The notes below the pieces were generated by a model. That model saw nothing but the letters and a program-made list of their open reading frames with translations. It ran no database searches and was not told the origin of the DNA. From the UHGV virus genome UHGV-0293321: a stretch of 16,182 nucleotides of DNA. One strand, 5' to 3'. The position numbers and the translations under genes are program-made. Position 1 is the stretch's first letter. Each line of letters starts with the position of its first letter. Shown here piece after piece: positions 1,796 to 7,655 of this stretch. The DNA is from a virus.

Positions 1796-2255
1796 TCAAC
1801 GTAAGGCGTTCCTCGATATGCTGGCGTGGTCAGAGGGAACTGATAACGGACGTCAGAAAACCAGAAATCATGGTTATGACGTCATTGTTGGCGGAGAGCT
1901 ATTCACTGATTACTCCGATCACCCTCGCAAACTTGTCACGCTAAACCCCAAACTCAAATCAACAGCCGCCGGACGCTACCAGCTTCTTTCCCGTTGGTGG
2001 GATGCCTATCGTAAGCAGCTTGGCCTGAAAGACTTCTCTCCGAAAAGCCAGGACGCTGTGGCACTGCAACAGATTAAAGAGCGTGGCGCTTTACCGATGA
2101 TTGATCGCGGTGATATCCGTCAGGCTATCGACCGTTGCAGCAATATCTGGGCTTCACTGCCGGGCGCTGGTTATGGTCAGTTCGAGCATAAGGCTGACAG
2201 CCTGATTGCAAAATTCAAAGAAGCTGGCGGAACAGTCAGAGAGATTGAGGTATGA
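1779..2255 (+). CDS. R: Endolysin R, lambda-type lytic transglycosylase (158 aa)
   Basis: Translation [51 protein letters not shown]... is near-identical to lambda R as recalled. Start overlaps the end of S. Confidence 0.95.
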
Positions 2256-2719
2256 GCAGAGTAACCGCGATTATCTCCGCTCTGGTTATCTGCATCATCG
2301 TCTGCCTGTCATGGGCTGTTAATCATTACCGTGATAATGCCATTACCTACAAAGCCCAGCGCGACAAAAACACCAGAGAACTGAAGCTGGCGAACGCCAC
2401 CATTACTGACATGCAACAGCGCCAGCTTGATGCTGATGCACTCGATGCTAAATACACGAAGGAGTTAGCTGATGCGAAAGCTGAAAATGATGCTCTTCGG
2501 CGCAAGCTTGATAATGGTGGCCGGGTGCTCGTCAAAGGAAAATGCCCTGTGCCATCCTCAGCCGAAACCTCCAGCGCCTCCGGCATGGGCAATGATGCCA
2601 CCGTCGAACTCTCTCCAGTTGCTGGACGAAACGTTCTCGGTATCAGATCCGGAATCATCAGCGACCAAACATCACTGAGAGCGCTGCAGGAATACATCAA
2701 CACGCAGTGCCTGAAATGA
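2252..2719 (+). CDS. Rz: Spanin inner-membrane subunit Rz (i-spanin, 155 aa); N-terminal half lambda-like, C-terminal half divergent
   Basis: N-terminus [40 protein letters not shown]... matches lambda Rz as recalled, with an N-terminal transmembrane segment. ATG overlaps the R stop (ATGA). Contains the embedded +1 frame Rz1. Confidence 0.9.
2472..2678 (+). CDS. Rz1: Spanin outer-membrane lipoprotein Rz1 (o-spanin), fully embedded in Rz in the +1 frame
   Basis: Strong RBS AAGGAG at 2459-2464. Signal peptide [18 protein letters not shown] followed by Cys (lipobox VAGC), then a Pro-rich mature region ([11 protein letters not shown]). Same embedded architecture as lambda Rz/Rz1. Confidence 0.85.
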
Positions 2720-2727
2720 ACAATCAT

Positions 2728-2750
2728 AGCCTCGTAATAGCGAGGCTTTT
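2728..2750 (+). terminator. Weak hairpin after Rz (possible attenuating terminator)
   Basis: AGCCTCG (2728-2734) / CGAGGCT (2741-2747), 7 bp stem with a 6 nt loop, followed by TTT only. The T-tract is short, so efficiency is doubtful. Confidence 0.3.
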
Positions 2751-2768
2751 ACTACCCGAGGGTAAATA

Positions 2769-2957
2769 ATGTCATCTCCAATCATGAAGTATTTCGCTTA
2801 TCAACACCTCCCTGCGCATCTGCAGGAAGTAAGTAAGCCAATCGGTGACCTTGCGACACTGATGGATGAATCACTGCCGGACAGTGCTGAAAAGTCAGCA
2901 GGTCTCCGCAAGCTGCTCGAAGCTAAAGATGCGCTGGTGCGAGCAAAGCTGGGGTAA
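2769..2957 (+). CDS. Hypothetical small protein (62 aa), predicted helical, no family recognised
   Basis: ATG at 2769 with GAGGG about 8 nt upstream. Same strand as the operon, in the slot where lambda carries bor on the opposite strand. Stop TAA lies inside the first GTAAGT repeat motif. Confidence 0.5.
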   Translation: MSSPIMKYFAYQHLPAHLQEVSKPIGDLATLMDESLPDSAEKSAGLRKLLEAKDALVRAKLG

Positions 2958-2995
2958 GTCATTACAAAGCCTATCTACGGGTGGGCTTGATAATG
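2954..2995 (+). repeat. Copy A of an imperfect ~45 bp direct repeat (GTAAGT, short hairpin, TTGATAATG)
   Basis: GTAAGT at 2954-2959, AAGCC (2967-2971) / GGCTT (2984-2988) stem, then TTGATAATG ending at 2995. Aligns by eye with copy B at 3245-3295. Confidence 0.45.
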
Positions 2996-3180
2996 AAACC
3001 AGAATTTATTCTGGGAAACCAGTTACGGCAGTACAGCGAAACAACCCAAGCCAGTAAGTGGGGAAATAACACTGGCAGCCACTGAAAGATGAACCTCCAG
3101 CCTTATGGCAAAAAGATTCTTTGTGGTGGCGGACTGATGGAAAGACATCCTATTTCCAGCCAAACATTGAAGGAGTTGTT

Positions 3181-3252
3181 ATGTCAGCAGAAGGTTTCAA
3201 TAACCCATCAAAATTCCGGGATGAGTGGGATAGCAGCGTAAAGAGTAAGTGA
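3181..3252 (+). CDS. Candidate micro-ORF (23 aa, MSAEGFNNPSKFRDEWDSSVKSK) with consensus Shine-Dalgarno
   Basis: AAGGAG at 3170-3175, 5 nt spacer, ATG at 3181, TGA at 3250-3252. Lies between the two repeat copies. Too short to judge by composition. Confidence 0.2.
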   Translation: MSAEGFNNPSKFRDEWDSSVKSK

Positions 3253-3295
3253 TGCCATCACAAAAGCCATTCCCTACAGAGTGGCTTTGATAATG
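3245..3295 (+). repeat. Copy B of the imperfect direct repeat (GTAAGT, short hairpin, TTGATAATG)
   Basis: GTAAGT at 3245-3250, AAAGCC (3263-3268) / GGCTTT (3283-3288) stem, TTGATAATG ending at 3295. Confidence 0.45.
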
Positions 3296-3357
3296 GCTTA
3301 TACCCTACACGGGATAACTTAACTGATATCCCTTTTAACGGATAAACTGAGCCAACA

Positions 3358-3600
3358 ATGGCAGAGATTATTCCCATGACTGAAGAACAGAAATTCCAGT
3401 TAGAGATTTACAAACTGGTCATGAACCAGAACGCAGCCGCAGAAGAAGCATTTCAATTCATCGGCACTGACGAGTTGAAGCTTGAGCTATTCAAAATTCA
3501 CTTCCAGTCAGGCGGCGCTAATTCAGATATCACGACCCGCACAATCGAAGCGGTACGTAAATCGAAGGAAGCGTTAGACCTGTTTACTACCGGAGCATAA
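3358..3600 (+). CDS. Hypothetical small acidic protein (80 aa) immediately upstream of terS; same slot and length as P22 orf80
   Basis: ORF ends 2 nt before the terS start. Weak RBS; an alternative ATG at 3376. Homology to P22 orf80 is not verified, only position and length agree. Confidence 0.5.
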   Translation: MAEIIPMTEEQKFQLEIYKLVMNQNAAAEEAFQFIGTDELKLELFKIHFQSGGANSDITTRTIEAVRKSKEALDLFTTGA

Positions 3601-3602
3601 AC

Positions 3603-4043
3603 ATGGCGCGCCCAACAAAGTATCAAGAGGCGTACGCCGAACAGGCACGCAAACTGTGCTTGCTGGGCTACACCGATGCAGAGCTTGCTGATTTCTTCGA
3701 AGTCAGTGAGTCAACTATTAACAAGTGGAAGCTTGATTATCCTGAGTTTTCGGAGTCCATAAAAAAGGGTAAGGCCGTTGCTGATGCAGAAGTTAGTGAC
3801 CGTCTTTATCAACGCGCTATGGGCTTCGTGGCTCCAGACATCGATATTCGTGTTATTGAAAACAGAATTGTCGAAACTCCGCTTGAGAAGTATTACCCGC
3901 CTGATACAACCGCCGCCATCTTCTGGCTTAAGAACCGACAGAAGGATAAATGGCGCGACAAGGTTGATCACGAACTAACAGGCAAAGACGGCGGCGCAAT
4001 CCAGATTGAAACATCACCGATGAGTACTCTATTCGGAAAATGA
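3603..4043 (+). CDS. Terminase small subunit (146 aa), Sf6 gp1-like C-terminus with a different N-terminal DNA-binding domain
   Basis: C-terminal ...ELTGKDGGAIQIETSPMSTLFGK matches the Sf6 small terminase tail as recalled. N-terminal region looks like an HTH DNA-binding domain (ELADFFEVSESTINKW). GGAG RBS. Stop overlaps the terL start (ATGA). Confidence 0.8.
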   Translation: MARPTKYQEAYAEQARKLCLLGYTDAELADFFEVSESTINKWKLDYPEFSESIKKGKAVADAEVSDRLYQRAMGFVAPDIDIRVIENRIVETPLEKYYPPDTTAAIFWLKNRQKDKWRDKVDHELTGKDGGAIQIETSPMSTLFGK

Positions 4044-5455
4044 CCTCGATTAATCCTATCTTTGAACCGTTCATTGAGGCGCATCGCTACAAAGTCGCCA
4101 AAGGCGGTCGAGGTAGCGGTAAGTCATGGGCAATTGCGAGGCTGCTTGTTGAAGCGGCGCGCCGGCAGCCGGTGCGTATTCTCTGCGCTCGTGAACTGCA
4201 AAACAGTATCAGCGATTCGGTAATCCGTTTGCTTGAAGATACCATCGAGCGTGAAGGGTATTCGGCTGAGTTTGAAATTCAGCGTTCAATGATCCGTCAT
4301 CTCGGAACGAATGCTGAATTCATGTTCTACGGCATAAAAAACAACCCGACAAAAATTAAATCGCTCGAAGGTATTGATATCTGCTGGGTGGAGGAAGCGG
4401 AAGCGGTAACGAAGGAATCGTGGGATATTCTGATACCAACCATCCGTAAGCCGTTCTCTGAAATATGGGTAAGCTTCAACCCGAAAAACATCCTCGACGA
4501 TACCTATCAGCGATTCGTCGTAAACCCTCCTGATGATATTTGTCTGCTGACGGTGAACTACACCGACAACCCGCACTTTCCTGAAGTTCTCCGTCTGGAG
4601 ATGGAAGAGTGTAAACGCAGAAATCCGACACTGTATCGTCACATCTGGCTTGGTGAGCCAGTAAGCGCAAGTGATATGGCAATCATCAAACGTGAATGGC
4701 TTGAAGCCGCAACCGATGCGCACAAGAAACTCGGATGGAAAGCGAAAGGCGCTGTTGTCTCTGCGCATGACCCGTCAGATACAGGACCAGATGCTAAAGG
4801 TTATGCATCGCGTCACGGTTCGGTAGTTAAGCGCATTGCCGAAGGTCTGCTGATGGACATCAACGAGGGTGCTGACTGGGCTACTTCGCTGGCGATTGAA
4901 GACGGCGCTGACCACTACCTGTGGGATGGTGATGGTGTTGGTGCTGGGCTACGCAGACAGACAACGGAAGCGTTCTCCGGCAAGAAAATCACCGCCACGA
5001 TGTTCAAGGGCAGCGAATCGCCATTCGATGAAGATGCTCCGTATCAGGCCGGAGCATGGGCTGATGAAGTCGTACAGGGCGACAACGTTCGCACTATTGG
5101 CGATGTGTTCCGCAATAAGCGAGCGCAATTCTATTACGCGCTGGCTGACAGGCTGTATCTGACATATCGGGCGGTTGTCTACGGTGAGTATGCAGACCCC
5201 GACGACATGCTGAGTTTCGACAAAGAAGCGATAGGCGAGAAGATGCTGGAGAAGCTGTTTGCAGAACTGACGCAGATTCAGCGCAAATTCAATAACAACG
5301 GGAAGCTGGAGCTAATGACTAAGGTCGAAATGAAGCAGAAGCTCGGTATTCCATCTCCTAACCTGGCTGATGCGCTGATGATGTGTATGCATTGCCCGGA
5401 GTCGGCTGCGCAACCCGACTATTCCAGTTACTCAATTCCTTGTGGTGTAGGTTGA
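4040..5455 (+). CDS. Terminase large subunit (471 aa), headful-packaging type
   Basis: Walker A-like KGGRGSGKS near the N-terminus, with acidic nuclease-domain residues in the C-terminal half. Length and position match P22 gp2 / Sf6 gp2. Confidence 0.95.
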   Translation: MTSINPIFEPFIEAHRYKVAKGGRGSGKSWAIARLLVEAARRQPVRILCARELQNSISDSVIRLLEDTIEREGYSAEFEIQRSMIRHLGTNAEFMFYGIKNNPTKIKSLEGIDICWVEEAEAVTKESWDILIPTIRKPFSEIWVSFNPKNILDDTYQRFVVNPPDDICLLTVNYTDNPHFPEVLRLEMEECKRRNPTLYRHIWLGEPVSASDMAIIKREWLEAATDAHKKLGWKAKGAVVSAHDPSDTGPDAKGYASRHGSVVKRIAEGLLMDINEGADWATSLAIEDGADHYLWDGDGVGAGLRRQTTEAFSGKKITATMFKGSESPFDEDAPYQAGAWADEVVQGDNVRTIGDVFRNKRAQFYYALADRLYLTYRAVVYGEYADPDDMLSFDKEAIGEKMLEKLFAELTQIQRKFNNNGKLELMTKVEMKQKLGIPSPNLADALMMCMHCPESAAQPDYSSYSIPCGVG

Positions 5456-5456
5456 T

Positions 5457-7655
5457 ATGGCAGAAAAAAAGATGGCTGACTGGCATCGCAAGGTGCTGTG
5501 CAACTTTGATAATGCCTGGTCAGCAACGCAGGATATGCGTGAGCAGATTATTGAGGCTCAACGTTTCGTCAGGGTGTCCGGCGCACAGTGGGAAGGTAGC
5601 ACAAACGCTGGTTACTCGTTTGATGAGGGCAGGTTTGAGCATTACCCGCGTTTTGAACTGAATAAGATTGCCCGTGAATGTGATCGCATCATTGGCGAGT
5701 ATCGACAGAATCGCATCAGCGTTAAATTCAGGCCGAAGGATGACAAGGCATCGGAAGCGTTAGCCGAAAAGATGAACGGCAAATTCCGCGCTGACTATCA
5801 GGAAACATCCGGTGGTGAAGCGTGTGATAACGCATTTGATGATGCTGTAACGGGCGGATTCGGTTGTTTCCGCATGTGTGCCGATTACGAAGATGAAATG
5901 GATCCGAGTAACGAGCAGCGCCGCATCAGCCTTCTTCCTGTTTACGACCCAGCGACATGCGTCTTCTTCGATCAGGACAGCAAGCAATATGACCGCTCTG
6001 ATGCTATGTGGGCTATGGAAATGTTCTCCATGACGCCTAAAGCGTTCGAGGCTGAATACCCTGATTCCATCGCGGCAAGCCTTTCTCGTGATGACACTGG
6101 CACTCAATATGACTGGTCAACGCCTGATGCCATCTATGTTGGACGCTACTACGAAGTTCGCATAGAGAAGGTGAAGCTCACAGCATGGCGTAACCCTGTT
6201 AGCGGAGAAACGGCAATCTATGATGAAGAGCAAATCAAAGATATTGTTGACGAGCTAACCGATGGTGCATTCGAGCTGATCGGTGAGAGGACAGTGAAGA
6301 AACGCAGAGTTTATTGCGGTCTTCTGTCTGGCGCTGAATGGCTGGAAGAACCGAAGCGTATTCCGGGTGAACATATTCCTCTCATCCCGGTATATGGGCG
6401 TCGCTCATTTGTTGATAATCAGGAGCGAATCGAAGGCCACGCAGCAAAAGCGATGGATGCACAGCGTCTTGAGAACCTGATGGTTTCCATGATTGCAGAT
6501 AACGCTACTCAGGCTGGCGGTGATGGCATTCCTATCGTGGATGTTGATTTCATTCCCGGCCCATTAATGAATCACTGGGCAGAGAGGAATAAGAAAAGAC
6601 CTGCAGTTCTTCCCATGACCAGCAAGAAGGACAAAAACGGAACGGTCATTTCAGAGGCTCAGGTTGCTGGCTGGACACCTCCGACACAAATGCCTCCTGC
6701 TCTTGCCGGGCTATTGCAGTACACCGGAACGGCTATTCAGCAAATTACAGGTGCGTCGCAGCTTGAGAACATGCCGAGCAACGTCGCTACCGATACCGTT
6801 GATAGCATCTTTAACCGGATGGACACGCAGTCCTATATCTACATGGACAACATGGCTAAATCCATGCGCCGTGCTGGCGTCGTGTGGCTTTCTATGGCTC
6901 GTGAAGTCTATGGCAGTGATACGCCGATGCGTATCGTTAATGAGGACGGCAGCGATGACGTGGCGCTGATGACTGGTGAAGTGGTTGACCGTCAGACAGG
7001 GCAGGTTATCGCGCTTAATGACCTTTCGCAGGGTAACTATGAAGTGACTGTCGATGTTGGCCAGTCGTTCGCTACTCGCCGTGATGCAACGGTTAAGTCG
7101 TTACTTTCCATGCTGGCACTTATCCCACCAGGAACTCCGAAGCACGACCTTGTATCGTCGATGATTCTCGACAATATGGACGGCGAAGGGATGGACGACC
7201 TGAAAGAATACAACCGCAATCAGTTGCTTCTGTCTGGCGTTATCAAGCCGAGAACGCCTGAAGAGCAGCAGATGGTTGAACAGGCGAAACAACAACAGGC
7301 CAGTCAGCCAGATCCGGCTATGGTTGCAGCGCAAGGTCAGCTTCTTGCTGGTCAGGCTGAATTGCAGAAAGCGCAGAACGAACAGGCAGCCATTCAGGTT
7401 AAAGCATTCCAGGCACAGACTGATGCTCAGGTTGCAGCGGCAAATGTTGTGAAAATACTCGCATCTGCCGATAGCCAGCAGAAATCTGATATCCGCGAGG
7501 CTCTGAAACTGCTCGGACAGTTCCAGCAACAGCAAGGAGACAATGCCCGTGCTGATGCAGAGCTTGTCCTGAAAAGTCAGGCACAGGGCCATGCGCAGCG
7601 CATGGACATCAGCAGCATCCTGCAAAAATCAACCCGGCAACAACCACAGCAGTAA
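5457..7655 (+). CDS. Portal protein (732 aa), P22 gp1-like including the long C-terminal Q-rich barrel helix
   Basis: Blocks IPxVPVxG, RRVY and the C-terminal DPAMVxAQGxLLxGQAELxKAQN ... RMDIxxILQ match P22 portal as recalled. Confidence 0.95.
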   Translation: MAEKKMADWHRKVLCNFDNAWSATQDMREQIIEAQRFVRVSGAQWEGSTNAGYSFDEGRFEHYPRFELNKIARECDRIIGEYRQNRISVKFRPKDDKASEALAEKMNGKFRADYQETSGGEACDNAFDDAVTGGFGCFRMCADYEDEMDPSNEQRRISLLPVYDPATCVFFDQDSKQYDRSDAMWAMEMFSMTPKAFEAEYPDSIAASLSRDDTGTQYDWSTPDAIYVGRYYEVRIEKVKLTAWRNPVSGETAIYDEEQIKDIVDELTDGAFELIGERTVKKRRVYCGLLSGAEWLEEPKRIPGEHIPLIPVYGRRSFVDNQERIEGHAAKAMDAQRLENLMVSMIADNATQAGGDGIPIVDVDFIPGPLMNHWAERNKKRPAVLPMTSKKDKNGTVISEAQVAGWTPPTQMPPALAGLLQYTGTAIQQITGASQLENMPSNVATDTVDSIFNRMDTQSYIYMDNMAKSMRRAGVVWLSMAREVYGSDTPMRIVNEDGSDDVALMTGEVVDRQTGQVIALNDLSQGNYEVTVDVGQSFATRRDATVKSLLSMLALIPPGTPKHDLVSSMILDNMDGEGMDDLKEYNRNQLLLSGVIKPRTPEEQQMVEQAKQQQASQPDPAMVAAQGQLLAGQAELQKAQNEQAAIQVKAFQAQTDAQVAAANVVKILASADSQQKSDIREALKLLGQFQQQQGDNARADAELVLKSQAQGHAQRMDISSILQKSTRQQPQQ

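Follow-up and report, generated by a model that had tools for sequence, protein, structure and literature searches.

The late region of the virus genome UHGV-0293321, which we analysed as one stretch of 16,182 nucleotides (the window), carries the sequence TTGATAATG twice, and this raises the question of what is repeated there and what the repeat does between the lysis and packaging genes of the phage. The window corresponds to the late region of a P22-like/lambdoid phage, with all genes on the + strand. A first-pass annotation had described the repeat as a module consisting of the hexamer GTAAGT, whose TAA would be a stop codon, a short AAGCC/GGCTT hairpin, and TTGATAATG, whose ATG would begin a short open reading frame (ORF), and it had suggested either a duplicated gene-end/gene-start junction, with serial insertion or deletion of small genes, or else a regulatory RNA element present in repeats. 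We find that the two copies, H1 and H2, belong to a family of conserved cis-acting intergenic hairpins that also serve as a boundary sequence. The explanation that we prefer, with a probability of roughly 40%, is that the hairpin would act as an RNA punctuation signal and would also be a patch for cassette exchange.

A family of two-part hairpins

The module proved to be real and longer than first described, with the short stem giving way to a two-part helix of ~17-20 bp that includes TTGATAATG. The exact copies of TTGATAATG, at 2987-2995 (H1) and 3287-3295 (H2), form the 3' arm of this helix, and the ATG pairs with a conserved CAT of the 5' arm. The hairpins and the block that lies between them are as follows.

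2959-2996, + strand: H1, with lower stem 2959-2964/2991-2996, internal loop CA 2965-66 / GA 2989-90, upper stem 2967-2975/2980-2988 and apical loop UACG 2976-2979
3025-3152, + strand: block B, ~130 nt, almost invariant, between H1 and H2/H3, containing the GTAAGT at 3054
3254-3297, + strand: H2, with lower stem 3254-3258/3293-3297, internal loop 3259-3262/3289-3292, upper stem 3263-3272/3279-3288 and apical loop 3273-3278

The alignment of H1 with H2 scored 26 compared to 11.5 +/- 2.1 for shuffled sequence, and 0 of 1000 shuffles reached 26. H1 folds as UCAUUA / CA / AAGCCUAUC / UACG / GGUGGGCUU / GA / UAAUGA, with an energy of -19.5 kcal/mol (z -6.5) on the + strand compared to -11.5 kcal/mol (z -2.4) on the - strand, while H2 folds as GCCAU / CACA / AAAGCCAUUC / CCUACA / GAGUGGCUUU / GAUA / AUGGC (-21.1 kcal/mol, z -4.7), its internal loop in the window being widened by a C.A mismatch. 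A third sequence type, H3, is present in P22, HK97, ST64T and many other phages and folds as GGUUAUUG / CA / GAGGCCAUUC / AAU / GAGUGGUCUC / GA / CAAUGGC. All three types share one architecture: the lower stem has 5-8 bp, the internal loop is a 2x2 CA/GA, and the upper stem of 9-10 bp is capped by an apical loop of 3-6 nt. Family members are ~38-47 nt long, and the two-part helix comprises 16-20 steps in each type. The CA/GA internal loop is present in 52 of 56, 16 of 19 and 16 of 19 unique variants of the three types, respectively. A natural H3 variant at L162 4037-4083 carries a GA to TG double substitution that closes this loop to give a perfect 20-bp helix (-31.4 kcal/mol), which suits it to testing what the internal loop does.

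Pairing is strongly maintained among the copies. Among 33 distinct H2/H3 sequences aligned, 94.8% of cells are paired, compared to 31-52% when the 3' partner is slid, and the 37 distinct sequences of the H1 alignment gave 93.9% compared to 27-48%. Four H2/H3 pairs have changed on both sides (A-U to G-C), including two upper-stem pairs and the pairs that close the internal loop, which are A-U in H1 and H2 and G-C in H3; one more pair varies between G-C, G.U and A-U among phages. The divergent copy of a Citrobacter prophage, which lies upstream of a DUF2560 gene that is 45% identical, shows C-G to G-C and A-U to C-G swaps. In 55/56 H1 and 20/20 H3 variants, it is the sense strand that folds more stably (mean -19 to -20 compared to -11 to -13.5 kcal/mol), as expected from the abundant G.U/U.G pairs on this strand. 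A covariance model built from the H2/H3 copies of other phages only detected H1 of the window at E=3e-6, and the model scored H2 at 54.5 bits (E 5e-12), with no further hits in the 16-kb window; a covariance-model search of the DLP12 and Qin prophages of E. coli K-12 returned no copy. Taken together, these sequence comparisons show that base pairing on the sense strand constrains how the hairpin family evolves.

The family is conserved across enterobacterial lambdoid phages, including P22-like, HK97/HK022-like, mEp and Stx phages. Parts of a 921-bp region spanning the hairpins match 208 phage records (Salmonella, Escherichia, Shigella, Klebsiella and Stx phages) and 2569 of 5426 complete E. 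coli genomes. Since the copies align above shuffled sequence and the motif is present in relatives, the two grounds on which the repeat might have been dismissed as chance both fall away. Across 243 sources totalling 2.1 Mb, 194 loci were found to carry hairpins, with 293 copies in all. A blastn-short search gave 129 copies of H1, and a contig scan anchored on the DUF2560 protein yielded 7 loci, including the divergent Citrobacter copy. Genomes carry 1-3 copies, always on the sense strand and between the lysis and packaging genes, and no copy was found outside this interval in the surveyed contigs. When a locus carries several copies (n=98), these are always on the same strand, 230-890 nt apart, in the order H1-H3 (72 loci) or H1-H2 (24 loci).

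Hairpin edges as mosaic junctions

When the window was compared by BLAST against 130 related loci, the breakpoints of the matches piled up at 2957-2960 (60 loci), 2995 (22), 3149-3152 (40) and 3251-3257 (53), and these clusters coincide with the edges of H1, block B and H2. The sequences that adjoin the hairpins are diverse, with 18 upstream and 13 downstream families flanking H1 and 10 upstream and 4 downstream families flanking H2. At least 25 unrelated ORF clusters end 45 nt or less upstream of H1 or H2, and the genes that end there include Rha-family regulators, ANT/KilAC, Sf6 gp66/N4 gp49, Tad2-like (anti-Thoeris), T5orf172/MUG113 and DUF551 genes. Loci L112, L140 and others provide examples of such a hairpin-flanked accessory slot upstream of H1 or H2.

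One locus, L123, corresponds to the window except that precisely the 300 bp from H1 to H2 are missing, the overlap at the 3' arm common to both hairpins being 15 nt, and it has H1 together with the same 62-aa ORF that precedes H1 in the window. Several further loci also have H1 joined to the sequence that flanks H2 downstream, and these junctions, like L123, support serial insertion or deletion at a repeated junction. By this comparative evidence, the 13-15-nt shared 3' arm, GGCTT(T)GATAATG, is a site of deletion between H1 and H2, and the hairpins more generally mark places where small genes are exchanged or deleted. The breakpoints at hairpin edges, the many flank families, the deletion in L123 and the RNA covariation bear out the suggestion of a duplicated junction module with small-gene insertion and deletion, or of a repeated regulatory RNA.

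Minimal efficient pairing segments have been put at 23-27 bp for Red-beta and 31-34 bp for RecA (PMC3945230). The near-identity of the hairpins extends over 37-47 nt, more than either enzyme needs and more than Red-beta/Erf-type recombinases require for pairing, and the hairpin is the only sequence common to otherwise unrelated neighbours. Because it is both the sole shared sequence and longer than a minimal pairing segment, the hairpin serves as the homology patch for cassette exchange. Comparative anatomy shows the hairpins, as far as such evidence can, to be the patch where cassettes are exchanged between phages, and this role is better supported than an RNA role.

These properties recall the boundary or linker sequences of lambdoid phages, which are likewise short conserved sequences at non-homologous junctions, occur in many phages, and are long enough for phage recombinases. 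The boundary idea is reportedly found in the modular theory of Susskind and Botstein, and in the 2001 study of HK620 by Clark et al.; the Sf6 record carries "bsq" features. In contrast with boundary sequences, the hairpins are structured and covarying rather than a mere string, and they occur in the lysis-packaging interval only. In the stretch of the Sf6 record that we inspected, the sole such feature was bsq7, which lies inside gene 63, away from H1/H2. The hairpins are conserved at non-homologous junctions, and comparative evidence indicates that recombination has used them.

The interval from Rz to the terminase genes

The H1/H2 interval lies between the lysis and packaging genes, which in lambdoid phages is part of a long Q/gp23-antiterminated late transcript. 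No tRNA or tmRNA was found in the region. The features around the hairpins are the following.

1472-1795, + strand: holin gene
1779-2255, + strand: lambda-R-type endolysin gene
2252-2719, + strand: Rz gene, with Rz1 embedded
2728-2751, + strand: terminator-like hairpin 3' of Rz, AGCCTCG-TAATAG-CGAGGCT followed by TTTT
2769-2957, + strand: 62-aa accessory ORF (cassette 1), with its TAA stop at 2955-2957, 1 nt 5' of H1
2997-3024, + strand: variable linker with a small hairpin, CCAGAAT-TT-ATTCTGG, containing the start of a non-conserved ORF from the ATG at 2993
3153-3253, + strand: cassette 2, which holds a micro-ORF at 3181-3252 and ends in the third GTAAGT plus TGA
3299-3316 (1 mismatch) and 3327-3344 (exact): two tandem 18-bp palindromes TATCC-N8-GGATA, directly after H2
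3358-3600, + strand: DUF2560 gene (Pfam PF10834, E 1e-43; phrog_571 and phrog_309)
3603-4043, + strand: small terminase gene
4040-5455, + strand: large terminase gene

The hairpin at 2728-2751 is the left border of the accessory-gene slot. Its homologues carry the annotation "rho-independent terminator" in the Emek and HK544 records, and a terminator scan flagged its minus-strand reading alone. As an intra-operon terminator, it must be read through by the antiterminated late transcript. The 62-aa ORF that follows it matches phrog_1761 (E 1e-33) and phrog_5120, which are PHROG entries without assigned function, and had no Pfam match. At the DNA level, this ORF is 70-77% similar to small genes of Erwinia/Dickeya jumbo, Vibrio, Acinetobacter and Mycobacterium phages, and as such it is a very widely travelled small gene. 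The micro-ORF of cassette 2 encodes 23 aa (MSAEGFNNPSKFRDEWDSSVKSK), has a strong Shine-Dalgarno (SD) sequence (GAAGGAG) 7 nt upstream, and is kept in HK544 and Emek, although it matched no family in PHROG or Pfam; in Sf6, 611R6 and Huey, the slot of cassette 2 is occupied by gene 66 (N4 gp49/Sf6 gp66 family). The first conserved gene past the hairpin region is the DUF2560 gene (P22 orf80, HK620 hkbM, Sf6 gene 67). In ST64T (L006, 1350-1706), the annotated orf-118 consists of an 80-aa DUF2560 homologue with a 38-aa N-terminal extension that runs through the end of block B and H3, and this extension is probably an over-extended start-codon call.

Block B is nearly identical in 38 unique copies across P22-like, HK97-like and Sf6-like phages. 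It is purine/A-rich and has no significant fold (z -0.4 and -1.3). Its copies differ by 1-nt indels in homopolymers (G4/G5 and A5/A6/A7), with the common A6+G form reading A AAA AAG, and such indels argue against coding; we rejected a protein read across the block given that the indels break the frame and that PHROG and Pfam gave no match. At the gathering threshold, Rfam returned no hit in the window. The best sub-threshold matches were mir-458 (22.2 of 59 bits, on the minus strand of H2) and, in block B, Proteo-phage-1 (RF03044, 16.8 of 42 bits), the latter being partial and restricted to unpaired flanks of the Rfam model. In a related locus, L042, the Rfam int-alpA motif lies at 6311-6375 on the minus strand (50.3 bits compared to a gathering threshold of 35.8), directly beside an H2-type hairpin, and similar sequence follows block B in L167, L116 and L091; the slot therefore hosts another structured RNA in some phages. 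A literature search returned no description of the hairpin family, with the classic HK620, Sf6 and P22 genome papers outside its reach, and a search with the literal hairpin sequences returned unrelated primers only. The hairpin family and the invariant block B are absent from Rfam and unannotated in the curated phage records inspected, despite their wide spread.

The palindrome TATCC-N8-GGATA matches twice in the window, compared to 0.21 matches expected. Of 242 related loci, 160 have a single copy of its exact form and one further locus has two, and it adjoins a hairpin in the sequences inspected. The arms are kept while the spacer varies in the non-homologous downstream flanks, as in TATCCCCGCAAGCGGATA, which we take to resemble lambda OR3. 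These palindromes look like a putative operator for a dimeric DNA-binding protein, placed upstream of DUF2560/HNH-terminase.

The hexamer GTAAGT did not hold up as part of the repeat. It does occur at 2954, 3054 and 3245, as had been claimed, with a further copy at 2829. The whole window contains 7 copies compared to 4.0 expected, a count that 28 of 200 shuffles reach. Within 2800-3299, the 4 copies were matched by 0 of 5000 shuffles for that hexamer, while at least 4 copies of some hexamer occurred in 15% of shuffles (P=0.15), so that the clustering is without significance when the hexamer is taken to have been chosen post hoc. The copy at 2954 belongs to the 62-aa ORF and is missing in other H1-bearing phages, whose sequence before H1 differs; that at 3054 lies inside the invariant non-coding block B and reads GAAAGT in some relatives; and that at 3245 is the end of the small cassette 2. 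We therefore rejected GTAAGT and its TAA as part of a repeated unit, the copies being non-homologous, not conserved with H1 and without significant clustering. The statement that each of these TAA triplets stops an ORF was correct for 2955-2957 and for 3055-3057, which terminates an overlapping ORF (2866-3057) that matches no family. It did not apply to 3246-3248, where no ORF of at least 20 aa ends; the adjacent TGA at 3250-3252 ends an ORF at 3121-3252 and the nested 23-aa micro-ORF.

A proposed punctuation hairpin and its rivals

Within one long polycistronic operon, the hairpins directly follow the stop codons of accessory genes that are interchangeable. In the reading that we prefer, the hairpin would act as RNA within the Q-antiterminated late polycistronic transcript, where, judging from the size and shape of its helix, it would be a punctuation signal, either a site of RNase III processing or a hairpin that confers stability. 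With such a signal, the accessory-gene mRNA would no longer share the fate of the downstream DUF2560/HNH-terminase-head mRNA for packaging and morphogenesis, and the same hairpin doubles as the homology patch for cassette shuffling.

A helix of about 20 bp, or two turns, usually interrupted by an internal loop or bulge, is a hallmark of RNase III signals in phage polycistronic mRNAs, such as the T7 R sites and lambda sib; this shape is reportedly described by Dunn and Studier (1983), Nicholson (1999) and Court et al. (2013). We favour a processing or stability role because the hairpins have this ~two-turn helix, with the internal loop ~10 bp below the apical loop. Like RNase III sites of the T7 R1.1 or lambda sib/tI type, which are irregular hairpins of this kind, they lie between cistrons of a long phage transcript, directly after stop codons, and in several copies per operon. 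The helix of 5-8 bp, 2x2 loop and 9-10 bp agrees with such sites, as does the inter-cistronic location, with all flanking genes from Rz to terminase on the + strand. In contrast with the T7 R sites, whose internal loops are larger and asymmetric and which occur between all genes, the hairpins have a small symmetric 2x2 CA/GA loop and are confined to one short late-operon interval. By this analogy, a processing or stability function is a tentative proposal, somewhat unlikely when taken on its own. The hairpins also resemble REP (repetitive extragenic palindromic) and BIME (bacterial interspersed mosaic element) hairpins, which stabilise mRNA 3' ends, in being repeated ~35-40-nt imperfect palindromes that are intergenic and within a transcribed operon; unlike these, they are unrelated in sequence, specific to phages and to this locus, and not dispersed over the genome.

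Several observations weigh against an RNA punctuation signal. The likeness to RNase III sites is drawn from helix length and shape in comparison to T7 R1.1 and lambda sib. Most pairs are invariant, and the covariation amounts to a few lineage-level events (H2 compared to H3, and the Citrobacter copy), while our sampling of hairpins was seeded with sequence patterns and is therefore biased to conserved copies. H2 folds about equally on either strand. G.T pairs would also be tolerated in a top-strand single-stranded DNA (ssDNA) hairpin, so that the pairing would suit an ssDNA role as well as an RNA role. Lastly, the BTP1 prophage transcriptome paper reports no RNA feature at the hairpin position, and none of the non-coding RNA coordinates retrieved falls between rha and pid. 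The known prophage small RNAs Pas, AgvB, AsxR and STnc100 were considered and rejected as candidates, as they are located elsewhere (near Q and the holin gene) and are already in Rfam.

Among the rivals, the best placed, which we consider unlikely, is a weak or conditional intrinsic terminator or a dual element like lambda tI/sib. Here the upper stem would halt unmodified RNA polymerase, or make it pause, on its way from accessory promoters in the lysogen, while Q-modified polymerase would read through and the full helix would then form. Like the intrinsic terminators that close morons, the hairpins are stable GC-rich stem-loops just 3' of an accessory gene in a late operon. That morons are closed in this way is reportedly described by Juhala et al. 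(2000). The GC-rich stem of 9-10 bp (-19.5 to -21 kcal/mol), the stable UNCG-type loop and the position immediately past stop codons suit a terminator, and the shoulders, which are rich in A on the 5' side and contain U on the 3' side (ACAAAGCC...GGCUU(U)GAU), are reminiscent of bidirectional terminators, with UUUUGU following H2 on the minus strand; in addition, the authors of the phage L study report unexplained intra-operon terminators in P22-like late operons. However, a U-tract (~5 or more U within 8 nt) is missing from the tails UUGAUAAU (H1) and UUUGAUAA (H2), and because only 2-3 U follow the stem, the hairpins fall short of the scan criterion on the sense strand; neither H1 nor H2 was flagged by a sense-strand scan. 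The conserved lower stem and internal loop are alien to terminators, the hairpins stand behind many unrelated genes, often after a true terminator, and 25 of 52 H2 copies lie directly behind a separate canonical GC hairpin with a T-run. Moreover, a sigma-70 promoter scan for the cassettes found none, and in the curated records of Emek and HK544, the terminator after Rz is annotated and the H hairpins are not. The hairpin is thus no canonical intrinsic terminator. More broadly, a consensus scan of low sensitivity found no sense-strand promoter-like site in 2200-4100, and we rejected a promoter in TTGATA/GATAAT, inspection by eye showing no acceptable -35/-10 pair and the scan finding none.

The ATG in the 3' arm suggests a further rival, translational control or coupling, in which a ribosome ending at the upstream stop codon would melt the helix, re-initiate and relay translation downstream. 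An SD-like GGGUGG/GAGUGG lies 8 nt 5' of the AUG, both being sequestered in the helix, and the stop codon falls 0-20 nt before the stem or inside it. Coupling would account for stop codons that abut or enter the lower stem and for the stop-stop-start arrangement UGAUAAUG, and the variable sites past the AUG of H1 (CCA/CCG/CCT, GAA/GAG, TTT/TTA) are third codon positions. In the window, the ATGs do open short ORFs, as the first-pass annotation had noted, their lengths being 30 aa and 9 aa, but a role as gene start was not borne out, since the length is not conserved. In relatives, the ORFs from the hairpin ATG comprise 3, 9, 13 or 30 codons of unrelated sequence, and we rejected protein coding from these ATGs given this spread of 3-30 codons and the lack of PHROG or Pfam matches. 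In several contexts, the true downstream gene starts further on, from an SD and ATG of its own, and pairing with the conserved CAU accounts better for the AUG. The hairpin ATG is a paired structural element and no conserved gene start, and coupling is an improbable account of the hairpins.

Somewhat less probable still is that the hairpins have no function and are a neutral remnant that spread recently with its neighbours by recombination, the GTAAGT/stop/hairpin pattern being chance. The very high identity of the copies and the non-significant clustering of GTAAGT would fit this account, whereas the compensatory double substitutions, the sense-strand-specific G.U pairs, the persistence of the hairpin as an island despite repeated replacement of both flanks, and the finding of one architecture with the same CA/GA loop in three sequence types do not.

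Least probable of all is a DNA-level site, in which the hairpins would be cis sites of a dedicated, attC-analogous, hairpin-guided exchange of cassettes on folded ssDNA during phage replication or recombination, or a hairpin, cruciform or palindrome-stimulated hotspot of illegitimate recombination, with cassettes inserted at the base: the layout of cassette plus hairpin, the unit borders exactly at the stem base in dozens of different junctions and the compatibility of G.T pairs with ssDNA speak for it, but the high conservation of sequence, rather than of structure only, fits ordinary homologous exchange, and tight borders are also expected from dense gene packing and selection. Like an integron attC, the hairpin is an imperfect inverted repeat 3' of each exchangeable cassette, with a stem / unpaired spacer / stem / loop layout. 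Unlike attC, it lacks R''/R' cores, is strongly conserved in sequence, and occurs in 1-3 copies in a phage late operon: neither strand of the hairpin ends, (C/T)CATTAC ... GATAATG(G/A), fits the attC core sites RYYYAAC ... GTTRRRY, no dedicated recombinase gene is adjacent, and no integron integrase or attI was found near the hairpins, where the neighbours are lysis, accessory, DUF2560/HNH and terminase genes. Since core sites and integrase are absent, the hairpin is not an attC. If such guided exchange did take place, the lysis-packaging junction would be a programmable slot for accessory and anti-defence genes. A related and similarly improbable alternative is that a stable non-coding RNA, comprising H1-block B-H3, would be cut out of the late transcript.

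The interest of the hairpins comes mainly from their spread in model phages, their bracketing of the ultra-conserved block B, and their flagging of an accessory and anti-defence hotspot. If they punctuate late mRNA as we prefer to think, they would represent an unstudied layer of post-transcriptional control in the model phages P22, HK97 and Sf6. Whatever their mechanism, they are a simple beacon, in sequence and structure, that points to a hotspot of accessory genes (Rha/ANT, Sf6 gp66/N4 gp49 and Tad2-like anti-Thoeris), and because this hotspot holds Tad2-like, Rha/ANT and gp66 genes, the beacon is useful for mining anti-defence genes. The hairpins also offer a concrete, testable example of the long-debated linker or boundary model of lambdoid mosaicism.

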